Of a DNA stretch of 64,000 nt, positions 1-10,760 are shown in pieces. The stretch is from a phage. The DNA is taken from the sequence record PV467748.1, one strand, 5' to 3'. Both the position numbers and the translations under genes were made by a program. The notes beneath the pieces were generated by a model, which saw only the letters and a list, made by a program, of their open reading frames with translations, did not search any database and had not been told where the DNA came from. Positions within the stretch are counted from its first letter, which is position 1. Every line of letters starts with the position of its first letter.

Positions 1-2
1 TT

Positions 3-347
3 CTAGAGTTGTACATCACTTCTGCAATATTCTAAAAATAATTTATCATTGTCTACTGTATCCCAACGACGCCAAGATGGGTTCCAGACCAAAGCGTTGT
101 CACCACAATCATTGAGCTTAAAATGGTCGTAGTACATAGCTATATGTCTGGTTTCGTCGCCAGAGAACCCTAGTATAGGCTCACCATGAGTATGATACAT
201 ATGATGGTGCATTGAGAGGTCGCATTTGTAAAACATCTCACGTTTACCACGAATGAACAAGAAAGCTTGACCATTCATATAGAATTCTTTATCTGTTTTC
301 AAAAGATATTTGAATACCGAATCTTTATGCATAAGTCCTCCTACCAC
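3..347 (-). CDS. hypothetical protein, His-rich (HHHMYHTH)
   Basis: ORF track; first codon in track is non-ATG, an in-frame ATG (MHKD...) lies 5 codons in; no homolog recognised. Confidence 0.4.
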   Translation of the reverse strand: MVGGLMHKDSVFKYLLKTDKEFYMNGQAFLFIRGKREMFYKCDLSMHHHMYHTHGEPILGFSGDETRHIAMYYDHFKLNDCGDNALVWNPSWRRWDTVDNDKLFLEYCRSDVQL

Positions 348-362
348 ATCCTTGTGGTTAAA

Positions 363-590
363 TTATTTTCCTAACGAAACACGAGTAGGTTTTTTACCAA
401 AATAGTCTTCATAAGACCCATCTAAACGACCTGCTTTAGACCGACAATATGAATCGTACTTTTTGTAATAAGACATCTCAGTATTATACCGCGGGTGTCT
501 ATCAGACATAATAATACTTAACGGCCAACCTTTGGCATAATCGCGAAGACCATTTATTTTACGAATGTATCTTTTCTTTAATTTTAGCAT
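363..590 (-). CDS. hypothetical protein
   Basis: ORF track, ATG start, tightly packed with neighbours on same strand. Confidence 0.4.
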   Translation of the reverse strand: MLKLKKRYIRKINGLRDYAKGWPLSIIMSDRHPRYNTEMSYYKKYDSYCRSKAGRLDGSYEDYFGKKPTRVSLGK

Positions 591-808
591 GAGCTCGGAT
601 ACCAGATTTTACCATCGGCCTGGGCAACGAAGGTACGACCAGCTTCTTCACCATAACAAGAGCTATTCAGCCAATCTTCGAGACGAACTTCGCCGTCATA
701 ATCGTCGAGCTCAACACCAAAACTTTGAGCAGAAGCCATATCTTTTACTTTCTTATACAGTGCAGCCAGTTCAAGTGCCGCTTTTTCTAATTCATTAATA
801 TCAGACAT
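584..808 (-). CDS. small paralog family member D (C-terminus ...KIWYPSSC)
   Basis: ORF track 584..958 trimmed to first ATG after the upstream stop (MSDINELEK...); shares N-terminal helix and terminal W.SS.C with the three upstream ORFs. Confidence 0.5.
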   Translation of the reverse strand: MSDINELEKAALELAALYKKVKDMASAQSFGVELDDYDGEVRLEDWLNSSCYGEEAGRTFVAQADGKIWYPSSC

Positions 809-818
809 TTTTATCGCC

Positions 819-1031
819 TTAGCAAGACATAGAGGATGTAAACCAGAAACCTTCACCATCCGGGATACCGTAATCATCACGGGCCCATTCATAATCATCA
901 TATTCCGGATTCTTTGGAGAAATGTATTGTCCACGACCAGAAACATGGAACTCTTCACCCGTTTCGTCAGCCACGGCCTGGCCTTTACGTACTAATTCGC
1001 GGATTTGTTTTTCAATTTCATCAATAGTCAT
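819..1031 (-). CDS. small paralog family member C (C-terminus ...FWFTSSMSC)
   Basis: ORF track; ATG start 9 nt after upstream stop with GGAAA RBS; family motifs. Confidence 0.55.
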   Translation of the reverse strand: MTIDEIEKQIRELVRKGQAVADETGEEFHVSGRGQYISPKNPEYDDYEWARDDYGIPDGEGFWFTSSMSC

Positions 1032-1040
1032 TTTATTTCC

Positions 1041-1322
1041 TTAACATTCAGAAGAAGAGGACACCCAACCGCCATTTTCTAGGCTGGTGGTGTAATCATG
1101 CTGGTTTACAATAGCGTACTGGGCTTCACCGTATTCTTCCCAGTGGGCAAGGTCGGCTTTCAAGGCGCCAGGAGAATAATAGTCACCGCCCATACCGCGA
1201 GCAGGGTATATATTAAAATGAGTCTCATATTTGTCAGCAATTTCCTCAGCACGACGAATAGCTTTGTGGATATCATTTACTGCGTCAGCCAGCTCTTTAT
1301 TTTTATGGTAATCATTCATCAT
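1041..1322 (-). CDS. small paralog family member B (C-terminus ...GGWVSSSSEC)
   Basis: ORF track; ADKYE..GDYY..W.SSS.C motifs shared with member A. Confidence 0.6.
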   Translation of the reverse strand: MMNDYHKNKELADAVNDIHKAIRRAEEIADKYETHFNIYPARGMGGDYYSPGALKADLAHWEEYGEAQYAIVNQHDYTTSLENGGWVSSSSEC

Positions 1323-1331
1323 AAAATTTCC

Positions 1332-1622
1332 TTAGCACATTGCCGAAGAGGAGATCCAAGCACCAACTGTAACGACGCCATTTTCAACTTCACCACCGTT
1401 GTTTTCAATTTCATCTTTAAACCACTGGGAGCATTCATAACCAACAGGGTAGTATGTACGTCCTGAGCCATAATCACCTGTTCCGAATTGAATACCGTAC
1501 TTATCGGCAATAGCTTCACATTTGGATTCGATGGTATCCACTTTATTCAGAAGAGCATAGATAGCCTTTTCTGCAGATTTCTCGTCGTTGTGTTCTGGGA
1601 TTTCGATTTCAATTTTATTCAT
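1332..1622 (-). CDS. small paralog family member A (C-terminus ...GAWISSSAMC)
   Basis: ORF track; ATGA overlap with upstream gene stop; ADKYG..GDYG..W.SSS.C motifs. Confidence 0.6.
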   Translation of the reverse strand: MNKIEIEIPEHNDEKSAEKAIYALLNKVDTIESKCEAIADKYGIQFGTGDYGSGRTYYPVGYECSQWFKDEIENNGGEVENGVVTVGAWISSSAMC

Positions 1623-1969
1623 GATTTACATTCCTTAATAAAGGTTTCAAGGTCATTACGTTTGGTTTGTTTTACATACTCATTATAATTAGCCATCTCT
1701 AAAGCATATCTCTTTTTACGCGGCTTGTTTATCCTATTGGTGTTGATAATATCCAAGACCAGAGGGATAAAGTATCCTATTAAAGCTGGAACCCAAATCC
1801 AGGCAAGGTTCAATTCAAATAGGTTTTGTGTCGTATCATTAACGACTCCACCAGCAATTAGTCCAACAAATCCGGCAATCGTACCAGTGACAAGTCCAGC
1901 GAATAAAGAAATAGCGATATCATAATCTGCTAATGCGTAACCAGGGTCGGTTTTACTAGGCTTATACAT
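1619..1969 (-). CDS. small membrane protein (two predicted TM helices)
   Basis: ORF track 1619..2005 trimmed to ATG (MYKPSK...) preceded by AGAGG RBS; hydrophobic stretches. Confidence 0.5.
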   Translation of the reverse strand: MYKPSKTDPGYALADYDIAISLFAGLVTGTIAGFVGLIAGGVVNDTTQNLFELNLAWIWVPALIGYFIPLVLDIINTNRINKPRKKRYALEMANYNEYVKQTKRNDLETFIKECKS

Positions 1970-2498
1970 TTTGAACCTCTTTAGCGTATTCACGGCATTC
2001 AGCAATAAAACGATTAAGCTTCCGTTGTTGTTTACGACTTTCTAATGTGTACTCAGTAGTTAAGATACCAAGCTCGGCTTTATCATAATTTTTAATATCA
2101 GTGTAAGATGGGCGACGGTCGACCATTCCAAATACATCACCATTTTCTAAAGCTACATAGCATACTAAATGGTAATCATCGTCTGCTATATTAAGAAGCA
2201 CACAATCAGCGCTCTCGTTTAAAGAATATACTGAATAACGTAGTCCGGCGAATTCCACTCGTTGAATAGCCAGATTTACGTCAATAATTTCCAAAGCATC
2301 TTCAAAAGAAAGGTCTTCAGCTAAAGCAAAAATAAAAGGTAATTTGGTAGTATCGCCACGGCTAGATGTTCTGCTTAAGAAATCGTTTGAATAGCCTAGG
2401 TCTTGGCGAATTCTATAAAGAACTGAATTGGTTTCATGGGAAAGACCGCTATTTTTAAACCAATCAATATTAGATATCAAATTATCATATAAGCTCAT
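1962..2498 (-). CDS. hypothetical protein
   Basis: ORF track; ATG preceded by GGAGGAGAGGAG RBS. Confidence 0.55.
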   Translation of the reverse strand: MSLYDNLISNIDWFKNSGLSHETNSVLYRIRQDLGYSNDFLSRTSSRGDTTKLPFIFALAEDLSFEDALEIIDVNLAIQRVEFAGLRYSVYSLNESADCVLLNIADDDYHLVCYVALENGDVFGMVDRRPSYTDIKNYDKAELGILTTEYTLESRKQQRKLNRFIAECREYAKEVQNV

Positions 2499-2546
2499 AA
2501 TATTCTCCTCTCCTCCAAATAGGGAGACCGAAGTCTCCCGGTAATA

Positions 2547-3140
2547 TTACTTAAGTGAATTAATGTAGTCTTCGATATCAGCAGAAGTCGTATCCATTCC
2601 AACTTGTGGGCCTTTAAACGTTTCTACACGAAGCAGGGTATCTTCAATATCAATCTTAGTCAGTGCAGCGATTTCAACAACATCATCGGCAGTAGCAATA
2701 CCAAGGGCAGCCATATTACGAGTTTCACGGATGTACTCGAGCTTAACGGCTAGTTCCTGACGGGAGTCATCAAGTTCCTTGACCTTCAGTTTAATTTCAT
2801 TACGCATTTCGATATAATCATCGGCTTTCTTACGAAGTTGAGTAGCCGTACGACGGTAAAGGAGGCCAAGTTTAGCATGCACCTGAACATCAGAGCCTTC
2901 TTTAATCAGTTTACGAATTTCGCGTTCTTTAGAACTAGCCAGTTGGTCTTTTTCGTTAGCAAGTTCACGAATACGTTTTTCTTCATTCACCGACTTAACA
3001 TGAGCAGTCTGGAGTTCAGTAATTTTATCAATCAGGGTAGAAGCAGCTTTAGTATACTGGTCTTCGATTGACAGGTTCTGAGTCATTGCGGTACCCAGTT
3101 TAGAACGGATGAACTCAACAATTTTCTTTAAAGTATTCAT
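2547..3140 (-). CDS. coiled-coil protein (PspA-like architecture, speculative)
   Basis: ORF track 2547..3215 trimmed to ATG (MNTLKK...) with GAAGGA RBS; long heptad-like helical sequence. Confidence 0.5.
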
Positions 3141-3218
3141 AGTATTTCCTTCAGTTGGTTGGTATTTTGTAATCCATGAGGACATTATACCCTGTCCTCT
3201 GAGGGGTGTAAACATTTT

Positions 3219-3617
3219 TTATTTCATTTTTGCTAGGCAGATTTCATTGGCTTCCCATTGAGCTTGCTTAATAATAGCTTTGGATACAGGAACCCTTTGG
3301 CCATAAGTTTTTGACGTTGAGAGAACAATGTATTTGTTTGCTTCATTATGCCAGCCCCGTGATTTTTCGCCATGGGTGCCTTTAACTACAGCTGACACCT
3401 CAACAGAGCAACCACCATCAGAAATCTTGGTTTCGACAATCCATTCATTTCTCTCAGCAGCTTCAAGTTCCAATCTAGTTTTTTCTTCATACATCGCGGC
3501 CCAATCAGTTTTTGCCAAGTTGAAAGTAAGAGCTTTCTCTAATTCTTTGGCATATTTTTGTTGTTCAGGTGTTAATGAATTATACAACTCTTGCATTTCT
3601 TTATCTTCGATATTCAT
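3219..3617 (-). CDS. hypothetical protein
   Basis: ORF track; ATG with GAGGAG RBS; early-type promoter just upstream. Confidence 0.6.
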   Translation of the reverse strand: MNIEDKEMQELYNSLTPEQQKYAKELEKALTFNLAKTDWAAMYEEKTRLELEAAERNEWIVETKISDGGCSVEVSAVVKGTHGEKSRGWHNEANKYIVLSTSKTYGQRVPVSKAIIKQAQWEANEICLAKMK

Positions 3618-3642
3618 TATGTTCTCCTCAAATTATGGGCTC

Positions 3643-3672
3643 ATAATATCTTAATCATGGGCCCATGTAAAC
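3643..3672 (-). promoter_or_regulatory. T4 early-type promoter (-35 GTTTAC, 18 nt, -10 TATTAT)
   Basis: Read on minus strand: GTTTACATGGGCCCATGATTAAGATATTAT upstream of the 3219..3617 gene; coordinates approximate. Confidence 0.5.
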
Positions 3673-3675
3673 GTT

Positions 3676-3942
3676 TTATTTCATATTATTGAAATAATCT
3701 TCCGCATCAAAATCATTATCATGATAAACTTTGGTAGACAATTTAACATAACCTTCGGCAGCGAACATATTAACCACAACCTTTACAGTATACCATTGTC
3801 CATCATCTTCATTACCCATTACTGCATAGGTTTCATACACCGGGTGTTCAGGACCGACAACCTTAATATCGTTAACTGTGGCACCAAATTCTTCCGGAAC
3901 ACATTTCATAAAGAAATTAAACACTTCACCATAATTATCCAT
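3676..3942 (-). CDS. hypothetical protein
   Basis: ORF track 3676..3957 begins with GTG inside the RBS; trimmed to ATG (MDNYGE...) preceded by GAAGGAG. Confidence 0.55.
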   Translation of the reverse strand: MDNYGEVFNFFMKCVPEEFGATVNDIKVVGPEHPVYETYAVMGNEDDGQWYTVKVVVNMFAAEGYVKLSTKVYHDNDFDAEDYFNNMK

Positions 3943-3961
3943 TTTACTCTCCTTCACTCTG

Positions 3962-4006
3962 TTGTTTTGATAGGTCTATAGTATCATGTTCTACGAAAGA
4001 GTAAAC
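3962..4006 (-). promoter_or_regulatory. conserved early promoter/leader element, copy 1 (GTTTAC-N17-TACTAT-AGACCTATCAAAACA)
   Basis: Near-identical block recurs at about 7192, 7536 and 42304, each directly upstream of a minus-strand gene start. Confidence 0.55.
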
Positions 4007-4028
4007 ATCTTTTTAAACCTTTTAGAAA

Positions 4029-4057
4029 CAAAAAAGGCCCAACCTTTCGGAAGGGCC
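4029..4057 (-). terminator. rho-independent terminator (hairpin GGCCCTTCCGAAAGGTTGGGCC + T-run on minus strand)
   Basis: Forward strand reads AAAAAAGGCCCAACCTTTCGGAAGGGCC; sits just downstream of the 4063..4617 gene. Confidence 0.6.
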
Positions 4058-4062
4058 TAGAA

Positions 4063-4617
4063 TCAGTTCTTGTAGAACCGGAATGGGTTTATGTGGAAGG
4101 CTAACATAGCCTTAGGGATTTTACGAGACAAAAGGCTCTTAAGCTTCCAACCACAGTACACGCGAAGGTAAAAGGTAATCCCACCAACCTTAAGATATGG
4201 AACTGAAGCAAATACACCCCAGGCGTCGTCATTCCACATCCATAACCACCCGTGATGAGCTTTATCAGGAGAACCGGATTCCACGTCGGGATTACCTCGA
4301 TAATGGAATTCCGAGCTACAATCACGACCGAGTTTATGGTAAGCAAAGTTATAAGCTTTATTTCGCCATAGCCAAGCTACTCTCTGAAGATAAACGCCGC
4401 CCGGCATTTTCCTGATGTTAGCCCAACGTTTAATATGACCTTTATCACCGTCAATTGGATTATCGTATGTCATCATCCAATCAAAGCCGTACGGTAATTT
4501 ACCTGTCTTTTTATTGTGGAAAGGAACCACAAATGGTGCAAGGATAACAGCCAGAACCATAGAGATAAAATCTAGTGGGACCAACAGAACCCAACTCAAA
4601 TATTTTAAAAGTTTCAT
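4063..4617 (-). CDS. membrane-anchored protein, Trp-rich (N-terminal TM helix)
   Basis: ORF track 4063..4722 overlaps the upstream gene; trimmed to first ATG after it (MKLLKYLSWVLLVPLDF...). Confidence 0.5.
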   Translation of the reverse strand: MKLLKYLSWVLLVPLDFISMVLAVILAPFVVPFHNKKTGKLPYGFDWMMTYDNPIDGDKGHIKRWANIRKMPGGVYLQRVAWLWRNKAYNFAYHKLGRDCSSEFHYRGNPDVESGSPDKAHHGWLWMWNDDAWGVFASVPYLKVGGITFYLRVYCGWKLKSLLSRKIPKAMLAFHINPFRFYKN

Positions 4618-4636
4618 ATATTTCTCTAAGTTAACC

Positions 4637-4660
4637 AAAAAGCCCCAGATGGGGCTTTCG
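4637..4660 (-). terminator. terminator-like hairpin (AGCCCCATCTGGGGCT + T-run on minus strand)
   Basis: Forward AAAAAGCCCCAGATGGGGCTTT immediately after the stop of the 4661..5125 gene. Confidence 0.45.
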
Positions 4661-5125
4661 TTATTTGATTTGTTTAGCAGACCAGATACGGTCTTTGATG
4701 ATTTTCTGAATATCTTCAACATACTCTAAGTCGTGAGCATGCGGATTATCTTTGAAGCTATGTGCTCGTGCCAGTTTCTGGCCTTCTGTTTTGATTACTA
4801 AAAGCTCTTTAAGAATTGCTTCATACTTAGAAATAATTCCTTTGGCGATATTTTTTTCTTGAGCGGCTTTAGGGTCCGCTTTTGTCGCAGGTGCTTTACC
4901 TGTAGCTTTCTGGAACAATTCACCTGATGCAGCTAGGCTTTTAAAAACTCGGCTAACAGTATTAGCATTAGTAAAACCTTCGGCTTTAAAATCTTTAATA
5001 AAACGGAAACGTTCTTCATCAGAGGCGTCTTTGTAAGAATATTTACCTGCTTGAATTGCTGCAATAGCAGCGGCTTTTACATCTGAACTAGATTGTTCGG
5101 TCAAAAATTCATTGTAAGTTTTCAT
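4661..5125 (-). CDS. internal head protein with capsid-targeting sequence (MKTYNEFLTE|Q), Lys/Ala-rich
   Basis: N-terminus matches the T4 IPI/IPII/IPIII capsid-targeting sequence MKTYQEFIAE with an L-x-E cleavage motif; basic composition like T4 IPIII. Confidence 0.7.
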   Translation of the reverse strand: MKTYNEFLTEQSSSDVKAAAIAAIQAGKYSYKDASDEERFRFIKDFKAEGFTNANTVSRVFKSLAASGELFQKATGKAPATKADPKAAQEKNIAKGIISKYEAILKELLVIKTEGQKLARAHSFKDNPHAHDLEYVEDIQKIIKDRIWSAKQIK

Positions 5126-5165
5126 TATTATTTCCTAAGTTAATTAACTTATCTATTTATTATGC

Positions 5166-5194
5166 CAAAAAGCCCCAACCTTTCGGAAGGGGCT
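5166..5194 (-). terminator. rho-independent terminator (variant of the GGCCC..GGGCC hairpin) downstream of the tRNA cluster
   Basis: Forward AAAAAGCCCCAACCTTTCGGAAGGGGCT; T-run on minus strand. Confidence 0.55.
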
Positions 5195-5244
5195 ATGCCT
5201 TGCGGCAACCTTGTCGGGGTTCCACCTGCTAAGGCAAGTGTTTG

Positions 5245-5576
5245 TACGAAACGCCGGGATTCGAACCCGGTTATTAAGTAGTTGACGCTACTCAATATTT
5301 TTAAAAGGCCATATCTCGACCATATCCGAACGTTCCGTCAAAAACGCTACTCGGCTTACGGCAAAGATATTTCCTCGAATCGATAATTCTGTGCGCCGTT
5401 TCTGCTGTGATGTAAGGGGACGTTAACAGATCGTAAAGATTTGTTAATGCCAGTCCTTACTCAGGGAACATCAGTCCGACGACTTACCGGTAGCGACCCG
5501 GTTTCTTGTTTGTTGCGCCGGTGAATGCTGGTAATCAGTCTTCATACGACGGCTTGACTATATAATAGTCTTCATT
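5245..5576 (-). ncRNA. untranslated region with tRNA-like 3' element; possible small stable RNAs (T4 species 1/2-like) or degenerate tRNA
   Basis: No ORF over about 330 nt; minus strand carries a perfect T-arm CCGGGTTCGAATCCCGG near 5251..5270 with pairable acceptor strands CGGAACG/CGTTTCG, but I could not fold a canonical D or anticodon arm. Confidence 0.3.
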
Positions 5577-5651
5577 TGGTATCCCGCCCTGGGATCGAAC
5601 CAGGACCGCAAACTTAGAAGGATCGTATGCTATCCATTACACCAGCGGGAC
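5577..5651 (-). tRNA. tRNA-Arg (anticodon TCT), CCA encoded
   Basis: Minus strand: acceptor GTCCCGC/GCGGGAT, T-arm CCTGG-TTCGATC-CCAGG, anticodon loop CTTCTAA, 3' ACCA; T4 encodes a tRNA-Arg(UCU); anticodon stem has one mismatch. Confidence 0.75.
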
Positions 5652-5656
5652 GTAGT

Positions 5657-5733
5657 TGGTGACCCAGACCAGATTTGAACTGGTAACCTTTCCCTTATGA
5701 GGGGACTGCTGCTAACCATTGAGCTACAGGGCC
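5657..5733 (-). tRNA. tRNA with CAT anticodon (Met or Ile-lysidine type), CCA encoded
   Basis: Minus strand: GGCCCTGTAGCTCAATGG...CCCCTCATAAGGG...GGTTCAAATCTGG...CACCA; anticodon loop CTCATAA. Confidence 0.75.
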
Positions 5734-5818
5734 TTAATTCTATTATGAAAGGCTCTTTGAGGGAAGAACCTTTGGTAATAGAGGGTATTAATGATAGAGT
5801 AATAATATCATATAATTC

Positions 5819-6295
5819 TTAAAGCATATCAAGTGCTTTCACATCAGGAATTTTAATTTCTTCTTCAATGATATACAGCTTGACATAAGAAATTACACGG
5901 ATAAAATCGCCATCATATTCACAAGCCATACCAAGGAGCTCAGTAAGGGCTTCATTCAAGTAGTATTCTTCCTCGTCGTCATTCAGCAAAGCTTCTAAGT
6001 CTTGGACCCAAAGGACTTTATCTAAAAATTCAGGAGTCAACTGGCCTGATTTTACACCAGATTCAATGTGAGCAATAACCAAGTGCTTAACTACGTCCCA
6101 TTCCGAATTACCACATTTATCCGGGTTGTTGCAATGCGAACCATGGAAAAGTTCTAGGATATATTTGTACTGTTGGATTTCATGTTCTTCTACGCCAAAT
6201 ACAGTCTGGGTTTTATAGTTATCGCCATCATTTTCCCAGGTTTCAATTTCAATCGCATAACCTTTAGGGATAGTTTGTCCGAATTTAATATTCAT
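5819..6295 (-). CDS. hypothetical protein
   Basis: ORF track 5819..6304 begins with GTG; trimmed to ATG overlapping upstream stop (ATGA). Confidence 0.55.
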   Translation of the reverse strand: MNIKFGQTIPKGYAIEIETWENDGDNYKTQTVFGVEEHEIQQYKYILELFHGSHCNNPDKCGNSEWDVVKHLVIAHIESGVKSGQLTPEFLDKVLWVQDLEALLNDDEEEYYLNEALTELLGMACEYDGDFIRVISYVKLYIIEEEIKIPDVKALDML

Positions 6296-6582
6296 TGCGG
6301 CCACATATTAATGTAATCAAGTTTAATAGAAGCAATCTTCAAAGGATTTTTAAAGATGTCGTATTCGACCAATCCGTTTTCAGTTGCGGTGTAGAAAGTA
6401 AAGTTAACAGAATTATAACGGCGACCATTAACTTTTAGTTTAACGTCGCTTGAACTACGACCAATATTAACCTGTTGGACATCAAGCACAGCATCTTTGC
6501 CAAAGTTGCGAATCAGTAGCTCTGCTGCAACCTGGTCTGAATTATATCCATTCTCTGGATTAGTAACCTTAACGTATAACAT
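6292..6582 (-). CDS. hypothetical protein
   Basis: ORF track; ATG adjacent to upstream stop. Confidence 0.55.
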   Translation of the reverse strand: MLYVKVTNPENGYNSDQVAAELLIRNFGKDAVLDVQQVNIGRSSSDVKLKVNGRRYNSVNFTFYTATENGLVEYDIFKNPLKIASIKLDYINMWPQ

Positions 6583-6984
6583 TTAACCCTCGTCTACAAT
6601 AGTATGGGTATTAGCATTAACAATCTGCCACCAGTCAAAACGATCGGAGCCGTAAAGAAACTTATTCTCGTTTTCTTTAACAATTTCACGTAGTTCATCT
6701 TCAGTGGCAGCTTTAGCGATTAAATCGGTATAGCCACCACGTGGATAGTAGTTATCACCCGCGAACAGAAGGAAATTTACTTTACCAGAAGGAACATATG
6801 CTTCCTTAGGATACTTGTTTCCTGCTTGGTCTACCACTTCAATATAACGGTAAGGAATATCAGTACTTTCAACCCATTGCCAAGCCGCAGCAGGGGATTC
6901 AAAAGCATCTACACCTAAACGGTTATCTTCATCTTTAGACGGATTATTTTCATAATCCGCATATACATAATATTCAACGTTCAT
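6583..6984 (-). CDS. hypothetical protein
   Basis: ORF track; TAATG coupling with upstream gene. Confidence 0.55.
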   Translation of the reverse strand: MNVEYYVYADYENNPSKDEDNRLGVDAFESPAAAWQWVESTDIPYRYIEVVDQAGNKYPKEAYVPSGKVNFLLFAGDNYYPRGGYTDLIAKAATEDELREIVKENENKFLYGSDRFDWWQIVNANTHTIVDEG

Positions 6985-9923: not shown

Positions 9924-10760
9924 TTATGAGTTCTTCCATACTTTCTGAGCTGAGTAACGCTTACCTTTAGACATAAATTGCTGAAGTGGAAGCATGACCA
10001 CATTAGCCCAATCAGCAGGTTTTATCTCTACTAAAGGTCCCTTAATATTTCCAGGGATATAAGCCTTAATCATCACGTCTGCACCAGCGAATCCTTTTAC
10101 CTTACTCCAATCGATTTTTAATTTAGTCGAGTTAGTAATGGTAGGCGTACTCGCGTATTGCTTCAGCAATTCTTCCAGAAATTGTTGACGTGCTTTAGGT
10201 GGAATATAGTGTAAGTTCAGTCCGTACATTAAATTATGCTTACCTAACCCAAGATAAATGATTAAAGGATATTTGTCCCAGTATGGTAGGGTATCCTTGT
10301 GCTTGGCGTCATAGATATAAGCATAAAGCTTACCAGGAGATGGTTTAGATATCTGGTGTCCACGAATTCCTTTCTTTAATGTTTCTGTAAACCATTTAGC
10401 TGATTTATTGTTTACGGCAGCGCCTTCGTTAGCAATCTTATCACGAATACTCTTTCTAAAACTATTCACCAAAATTAATTGACGTTCGGCTTTGGTTAAT
10501 TTATTGCCAGGTTTCTTCTGAAGTTTTTCAACCTGTACAGCAGTTTTAATTCGACTCGAGTATCGAGACATCGCAGATGTAAAGCTAGAATACTTAATGC
10601 CTTTATCTTCAGCGAATTTCTTAGCCGAAACACCTTTAGCCTTAGCCTTGGCATATTCAACGCCTAAAGTTATCCATTGTTGTTCTGAACGGGTAGGCTT
10701 GGAACCTTTTGTAGTTTCAGTAGCCTCGTTTATGTAAGAAAATATACTCATCCTTTCCAT
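9924..10760 (-). CDS. 2: DNA end-protector protein gp2
   Basis: Synteny and size (278 aa vs 274 in T4); basic protein. Confidence 0.65.

Follow-up and report, generated by a model that had tools for sequence, protein, structure and literature searches.

A tandem array of four small genes in a Dhakavirus and the phage protein family with a conserved Ser-Ser...Cys tail to which they belong

What kind of protein is encoded by four small genes that lie end to end on the minus strand of a T4-type phage, and what might be done by the cysteine on which each of their products ends? The question arises from a stretch of phage DNA of 64,000 nucleotides (sequence record PV467748.1), which was analysed at its full length and is called the window below. 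Its genes A to D (Table 1) encode proteins whose last residue is Cys in all four cases, with W-x-(S/T/P)-S-S ahead of it. An earlier note on this DNA, made from the sequence alone, had taken them for tandem and fast-diverging paralogs of a family that it did not recognise. Bases 1-4000 share 92-95% identity with the Dhakavirus genomes PSD9, WG01, JS98 and Bp7, and on this similarity the window belongs to a JS98/WG01-like Dhakavirus, a T4-type phage. The array is set in the e-to-tRNA region; its counterpart in JS98 and PSD9, flanked by lysozyme e/nudE and by the tRNA cluster, is known as the 'e-segB intergenic region' of T4-type phages. All genes matching the array are annotated there as 'hypothetical protein'.

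Table 1. Genes of the array, their junctions and nearby features in the window
Feature	Position	Strand	Details
Paralog A	1332..1622	-	96 aa; ORF; phrog_899 E 2.1e-23; family HMM E ~7e-25; AlphaFold2 pLDDT 91.7
Paralog B	1041..1322	-	93 aa; ORF; phrog_899 E 1.5e-20; family HMM E ~1e-25
Paralog C	819..1031	-	70 aa; ORF; phrog_899 E 2.9e-14; family HMM E ~4e-18
Paralog D	584..808	-	74 aa; divergent short form; phrog_899 E 1.4e-9; family HMM E only 0.05
ATGA overlap, stop of upstream membrane-protein gene (1619-1969, phrog_2330) and start of A	1619..1622	-	
A/B junction	1323..1334	-	TAA stop of A within TAAGGA ribosome-binding site; ATG of B 9 nt on
B/C junction	1032-1043	-	Layout as A/B; TAAGGAAATAAA; gap 9 nt
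C/D junction	809-821	-	Layout as A/B; TAAGGCGATAAAA; gap 10 nt
Candidate T4-type middle promoter (MotA box TGCTTTA, 12 nt, TATAAT)	1682..1706	-	~60 nt upstream of A; consensus match only
Strong sigma-70-like promoter (TTTACA, 17 nt, TATAAT; 11/12)	3184..3212	-	Precedes the e.6-like gene
tRNA-Arg and tRNA-Met	5577-5733		

Relatedness of the four genes

A, B and C are plainly homologous. Their pairwise Smith-Waterman comparisons (A/B, A/C and B/C) gave z values of 5.9-6.7 against 2000 shuffles, and the profile phrog_899 was matched by all four proteins (E from 2e-23 to 1.4e-9), at profile positions ~133-221. An ending of the form W..S..C was found in 4 of the 717 stop-to-stop ORFs of the window, all adjacent and identical with A-D, and in T4 in a single unrelated ORF out of 1836. 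That the shared motifs are a low-complexity coincidence, or the genes over-called ORFs, is hardly credible: the weak similarity of D to A-C in direct comparisons speaks for it, and the profile E-values, the shuffle tests, the restriction of the tail to four neighbouring ORFs, the purifying selection and the 373 related clusters described below speak against it. A chance origin was rejected for A-C on the profile, shuffle, selection and tail-uniqueness evidence.

The standing of D called for separate consideration. In direct tests it is weakly placed, with z values of 1.0-2.4 against A-C, a score of 5 bits against a family HMM from which D-like sequences had been left out, and an hhalign probability of 1% for an alignment of D-type sequences compared with the main family. 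Started from D, jackhmmer reaches convergence on the family by way of P0047, P0133 and P0153, among other intermediates that have a DW-x-x-SS-C-YGEE element in common with D, and D-like genes sit within the family arrays of other genera. We count D as a member because of this convergence, its match to phrog_899, its tail and the presence of D-like genes within arrays elsewhere. The description of the locus as four tandem paralogs of one family is thus upheld, the shuffles supporting it for A-C and the common profile match for all four, with D as a divergent member that is weak in direct tests.

Each protein displays the family features to a different degree. The central hairpin, YG(M/S)GG-TYYP, is present in A and B, degenerate in C and missing from D. 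In A, a helix at residues 14-42 with AIADKYG at its end is followed by the hairpin GDYGSGRTYYP (the hairpin motif itself reading YGSGRTYYP) and by the tail GAWISSSAMC; B has EIADKYE, ARGMGGDYYSPG, an RGMGGDYYSP hairpin and the tail GGWVSSSSEC; and C has AVADETG, SGRGQYISP in the place of the hairpin, and the tail GFWFTSSMSC. D retains the helix, lacks the YGMGG hairpin, carries DWLNSSCYGEE internally and terminates in KIWYPSSC. D starts at the ATG at position 808, which has a ribosome-binding site ahead of it, and not at the GTG at 958 of the longer ORF called mechanically.

The genes are tightly coupled, as the earlier note had proposed. At all three junctions within the array (3/3), the TAA stop forms the first part of a TAAGG ribosome-binding site; the start of A overlaps the preceding stop as ATGA, D and the next gene overlap by 7 nt, and the gaps of 9, 9 and 10 nt require a correction of a single nucleotide to the 'within 9' that had been claimed. 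Since each stop lies inside the next start or at most 10 nt from it, this arrangement suggests that A-D are made in roughly equal amounts, before the late period.

Spread, conservation and age of the family

When 1.84 billion representative proteins were searched exhaustively with a profile, 373 clusters at 50% identity were returned (E <= 1e-3); among the 150 matches listed, lengths ranged from 64 to 144 aa, and the alignment reached the last profile position in nearly all. Every named record of the family is a phage. Members were found in Dhaka-, Mosig-, Gapriver- and Karamvirus, in phages of Aeromonas, Serratia, Citrobacter, Yersinia, Acinetobacter, Ralstonia, Acidovorax and Myxococcus, and in jumbo phages of 300-390 kb, and abutting arrays of 2-5 copies are common in many unrelated phages. 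A scan of 185,579 bacterial and archaeal genomes for the DNA pattern of AYGMGGTY detected no family member. It gave 5 matches, when ~17 were expected by our estimate, 4 of them in S24 LexA-like repressors; the S24 repressors are not family members, and mimicry of the LexA cleavage site was rejected, the short motif being shared by chance.

The proteins are small and acidic (median pI 4.46 for 178 sequences), and we take them as cytoplasmic because their composition gives no hint of export. An amphipathic helix, closing with A-E-x-I-A-D-E/K-x-G-h-x-F, makes up their N-terminal half, and (A)YGMGGTYYP or GDYGSGRTYYP comes after it. Cys is the terminal residue in 166 of the 178 sequences and next to last in most of the others, and in 100 of the 178 this terminal Cys is the sole one. 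Across the 166 sequences the tail reads (E/D)-G-G-W-[VIL]-S-S-S-x-x-C, with W at P-7 in 159, S at P-4 in 161 and S at P-3 in 162 of them; extra internal W-x-SS-x-C units occur in 18 members, including D (WLNSSC). Seven positions are invariant in an alignment of 22 sequences (D40, F46, G54, W89, S92, S93 and the terminal C96). Three traits first remarked on in the four proteins, namely the helix, an aromatic/Gly segment at the centre and the W-x-SS-x-x-C ending, are indeed true signatures of the family, as this alignment and the 166 Cys endings indicate.

With regard to known proteins, searches of Pfam, NCBIfam, PADLOC and PDB sequence profiles produced only noise for the family. PHROG 899, which is the same family, is a catalogue entry with neither name, function, structure nor publication, and our literature search found no work on it. 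Its members bear the name 'hypothetical protein' in their sources, apart from a few evidently spurious automatic labels. RB69 ORF136c/137c/139c, JS98 orf126-129, 44RR2 ORF063c and Bas47 gene 0236 are orthologues or paralogs from the same e-to-tRNA region; all are uncharacterised, and order and copy number vary (five in JS98, four in the window, two to three in some genera). The family HMM found no T4 homologue when ORFs from all six frames were scanned over 127 kb of the 169-kb T4 genome, comprising all early and middle regions on either side of the late structural genes at 76-118 kb; the T4 e-to-segB interval yielded zero matches. The best T4 match was the marginal one of Tk.1 (62 aa, uncharacterised; E 0.0065 among T4 ORFs), which resembles the family over the central strand and hairpin (LSFEISSEYGDAETYY), does not possess the C-terminal W-SSS-C tail and is not a significant match. 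The T4 internal head proteins (IPI/II/III) are marked by a capsid-targeting leader of the MKTYQEFIAE type and a gp21 cleavage site; such an identity was rejected for A-D, whose N-termini (MNKIEIEIPE, MMNDYHKNKE, MTIDEIEKQI and MSDINELEKA) are unlike this leader. The earlier note, which did not recognise the family, is borne out in this respect: Pfam, NCBIfam, PADLOC, PDB and the scanned part of T4 give no match. The family fits no known kind, and it is novel in the sense that no characterised relative was found.

The evolution of the array was informative as to its age. In Mosigvirus- and Karamvirus-like loci, a single orthologue corresponds to each paralog type and occupies a place of its own; the cross-genus identities are 45-48% (A), 59-62% (B), 37-47% (C) and 62-70% (D). 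The overall range of orthologue identity in other T4-like genera, 34-70%, is similar to that of the adjacent e.6-like gene (51-72%). In other genera the genes run A,B,D,C, or, in a single locus, D,A,B; A and B alone, or A, B and D, are what some lineages carry, and several neighbours (phrog_8788, phrog_7065) have no counterpart in the Mosigvirus- and Karamvirus-like loci. Relative to JS98, dN/dS was 0.13 for A, 0.19 for B, 0.30 for C and 0.09 for D; a local rise of dS in B and C hints at an exchange of alleles. Between B and C, JS98 carries one more short paralog, its fifth (orf127, ending in SWVSSSYEC), absent from the window. The separate orthologues of each type and the low dN/dS values point to old duplications and to genes retained under constraint, not to a rapidly evolving array; the label 'fast-diverging' accordingly finds no support. 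On these comparisons, A-D are ancient paralogs within a large and phage-restricted family.

The earlier note had called such arrays typical of host-interaction or anti-defence genes. On an anti-defence reading the paralogs would be inhibitors, each with a separate host immune protein, or a separate allele of the same protein, as its target. Small acidic proteins encoded among pre-late genes in a variable region with gain and loss of neighbours, a copy number that differs among close relatives (as with JS98 orf127), arrays that are common across phages, and the raised local dS of B and C are all in line with it. It is nevertheless on the unlikely side, as dN/dS values of 0.09-0.30 and stable one-to-one orthologues are no arms-race signature, and a motif that is invariant from phages of Escherichia to those of Myxococcus argues for a universal target or a ligand. 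Furthermore, no likeness of fold was found in the PDB, which includes solved structures of phage inhibitors, no literature on the family was found, and the family is absent from the scanned T4.

Expression context and predicted fold

Genes from the sigma-70-like promoter at 3184..3212 down to A-D are all co-directional, and this promoter could drive the whole run through the array. The sole minus-strand terminator-like match ahead of the array lies at 1872-1887, within the upstream membrane-protein gene, and no late promoter (TATAAATA) was found in positions 1-6000. Where the family occurs in unrelated phages, it is bordered by genes of replication, nucleotide metabolism and RNA repair, as is typical of pre-late regions. 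We infer from the sequence that A-D are probably co-expressed before the late period; the consensus promoter matches are not enriched over chance, the MotA-box-type pattern occurring 4 times in the window when 1.96 are expected. As for a functional association with neighbours, no recurring partner enzyme was found beside family loci (121 neighbour proteins in related loci). A link to tRNA was rejected, as tRNA genes lie within 6 kb of 10 of 40 loci, of which 8 are T4-like loci sharing gene order and the other two are L031 and L033.

From a structural point of view, paralog A was modelled with confidence by AlphaFold2 from an alignment of 22 sequences (pLDDT 91.7, pTM 0.78). In order, the model shows a long amphipathic helix at the N-terminus with (A/V)-A-D at its end, a short strand with the invariant Phe, the hairpin YG(M/S)GG-TYYP, a variable and very acidic segment with a conserved Trp, and a last strand and turn, G-G-W-[VIL]-S-S-S-x-x-Cys-COOH. 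In residue numbers, the model places helix 14-42, strands 46-48 and 55-58 on either side of the Gly-rich loop, helix 66-74 bearing the conserved Trp, three short strands, and the terminal turn 92-95 (SSAM), so that the tail falls within the predicted fold. It resembles the BFVD models of family members (RB69ORF139c, for example, E 8e-6), and a fold search gave no significant match among the solved PDB structures. The fold of A is thus predicted to be new, with no solved relative. The model of D, from an alignment of 6 sequences, is too poor (pLDDT 58.5) for its fold to be compared with that of A.

The position of the tail in this model weighs against another reading of the array, in which its members would be precursor peptides whose Ser/Cys-rich tails are modified post-translationally in the manner of RiPPs (lanthipeptide, thiazole/oxazole or thioether). 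Lanthionine rings join Ser at i to Cys at i+3 or i+4, which is the spacing found in the tail; the layout of the proteins, in which a long N-terminal part precedes a short Ser/Cys tail, superficially recalls the 'leader' and 'core' of such precursors, and tandem precursor copies are typical of RiPP loci. Yet no dehydratase, cyclase, radical-SAM or YcaO protein was found among the 121 neighbour proteins, the tail lies within a confidently predicted fold and not in a disordered core, and the family occurs in virulent large phages, with no bacterial-genome member by the YGMGG DNA pattern. This reading is very improbable, and we rejected it because the 121 neighbour proteins include no modifying enzyme and the tail is folded in the model of A.

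Possible roles of the array

The best explanation of these observations, which we put forward tentatively, is that A-D are co-produced pre-late proteins that bind one or more host factors, the thiol tail being the working end. From a mechanistic point of view, the four proteins, possibly assembled into homo- or hetero-oligomers, would bind the host component or components in a fixed proportion. The conserved scaffold would consist of the helix and the hairpin, the acidic variable segment would confer specificity on each paralog, and chemical activity or contact with a ligand would fall to the Ser-Ser...Cys thiol at the very end of the chain. The thiol may act by coordination of a metal or ligand, by formation of a mixed disulfide or persulfide, or by docking into a pocket of the partner. 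Up to co-expression, this account consists of what is read in, or predicted from, the sequence; the binding of host factors and the role of the thiol are what we infer beyond that. D, which has no hairpin and whose model is poor, means that the four may not share one mode of action, and the terminal Cys could be purely structural.

Small acidic early proteins of T4 that bind host factors (Arn, AsiA) and phage sponges (Acb2/Vs.4, Tad2) provide analogues for such a role. The family may be likened to them in size, acidity, pre-late setting and presumed binding in fixed proportion, whereas it displays no sequence similarity to them and no significant fold match in the PDB.

That D, F, G-G, W, S-S and C do not vary among phages of very distant hosts is explained by a conserved small ligand, or by a chemical function, no less readily than by the binding of variable host proteins. 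This leads to the main rival of the host-factor explanation, in which a metal, an Fe-S cluster or a small ligand with a phosphate would be held by the hairpin together with the Ser-Ser...Cys tail, perhaps at a site that subunits share, or in which the terminal Cys would carry a persulfide as acceptor, or as mimic, of the mobile catalytic loop of the host cysteine desulfurase IscS. The terminal Cys, the two Ser, the Asp and the Gly-rich loop are indeed near-invariant over 373 clusters and very different hosts, the W-x-SS-x-C unit is repeated internally in 18 members, D among them, and the invariance of the motif across very distant hosts gives this rival some additional weight. In addition, the mobile catalytic loop of IscS/NifS (SSGSAC; V-S-S-G-S-A-C328 in Escherichia coli IscS, 1p3w) resembles [VIL]-S-S-S-x-x-C of the family, both comprising a hydrophobic residue, Ser-Ser, three residues and Cys. 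In the DsrC/TusE sulfur carriers a C-terminal arm has a Cys at its tip, and by analogy the loop, the arm and the family tail may be compared as terminal or mobile elements tipped with a reactive Cys.

This likeness to IscS/NifS is, however, no more than a lead, a post hoc pattern of 7 Ser-rich residues, for which we estimate ~10 chance matches per E. coli-sized proteome, and it is accompanied by neither homology, fold match nor supporting gene context. Position P-3 is an invariant Ser in the family and Gly in IscS, no sulfur-relay, Fe-S or tRNA-thiolation gene recurs nearby, and nearby tRNA genes occur only where T4-like gene order places them. Because the terminal Cys is the sole one in 100 of the 178 sequences, thiol chemistry would need a partner or an oligomer. 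Overall, we consider the ligand or sulfur reading unlikely.

A bolder proposal, to be regarded as a long shot, is that the family represents a new class of phage thiol-tail proteins, in which the C-terminal Ser-Ser-x-x-Cys would carry or intercept persulfide sulfur, bind a metal or an Fe-S cluster between subunits, or trap a host enzyme through a covalent bond. A universal host pathway would then be rewired by large virulent phages of hosts from Escherichia to Myxococcus, the four types forming a hetero-oligomer.

Whichever role is retained, the family counts among the larger phage protein families without a function, with its 373 clusters at 50% identity, and it is present in therapeutic and model isolates (RB69, JS98 and BASEL Bas47). 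It is at present one uncharacterised family among many, and it is also widespread, structurally novel and chemically suggestive. It is both tractable and unusual, by virtue of a confidently predicted fold with no solved relative, a near-invariant C-terminal Cys and conserved multi-copy arrays. Its study could reveal a mechanism of host takeover or counter-defence which the classic T4 model cannot show, since T4 lacks the family in the regions scanned. A binding partner or a chemistry, once found, would annotate hundreds of genomes.

Gene junctions and upstream signals

At each of the three junctions between the four tandem paralogs, the TAA stop of the preceding copy (A, B or C) forms the beginning of the TAAGG ribosome-binding site that serves the following copy; the termination and re-initiation signals are therefore fused. 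A site resembling a T4 middle promoter (TGCTTTA, 12 nt, TATAAT) was found by pattern matching about 60 nt ahead of A, where it falls within the 3'-terminal part of the gene for the upstream membrane protein; this pattern was not enriched in the window as a whole (4 found versus 1.96 expected).

Features of the array, its flanks and the compared phages
Feature	Sequence	Position	Strand	Remark
Middle-promoter-like site	window	1682-1706	-	pattern match
Fused stop/ribosome-binding site	window	1323-1334	-	A/B junction
Fused stop/ribosome-binding site	window	1032-1043	-	B/C junction
Fused stop/ribosome-binding site	window	809-821	-	C/D junction
Predicted membrane protein, phrog_2330	window	1619-1969	-	upstream neighbour
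75-aa protein, phrog_7065	window	363-590	-	downstream neighbour
tk.1	T4 (L055)	10346-10534		marginal family similarity
orf127, 65 aa	JS98 (L001, EF469154)	6563-6760	-	tail SWVSSSYEC
C-type gene	JS98 (L001, EF469154)	6344-6553	-	not annotated in GenBank record

Likeness to other proteins and database labels

Among T4 ORFs, Tk.1 showed marginal similarity to the central strand and hairpin of the family (LSFEISSEYGDAETYY; E 0.0065), and it lacks the Cys tail. Tk.1 may be a truncated remote relative, or the match may be noise. The string IDLAYGMGGTY occurs just upstream of the peptidase domain in S24 LexA-like repressors of alphaproteobacterial and Mycobacterium MAG genomes (L049, L050, L052, L053), with identity to the hairpin motif over 9 residues; this likeness was judged a chance short-motif match. 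In GenBank records of relatives, some B, C and D orthologues are named "tail completion protein", "DNA helicase" or "major capsid protein", labels which are evidently errors propagated by automatic pipelines.

Comparison with JS98 and divergence across the array

In the related Dhakavirus JS98, a fifth family-like gene, orf127, lies between the B-type and C-type genes; the window has no such gene. As regards the flanking genes, the predicted membrane protein shares only 59% identity with its counterpart in JS98, and for the phrog_7065 protein the other genera examined had no counterpart.

Synonymous divergence from JS98, compared between window 819-1322 and the flanks (363-590 and 1332-3140), reached 0.43-0.55 in B and C versus 0.10-0.22 in A and the three flanking genes tested, D being intermediate (0.36). 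This pattern points to a possible mosaic or recombination patch confined to part of the array.
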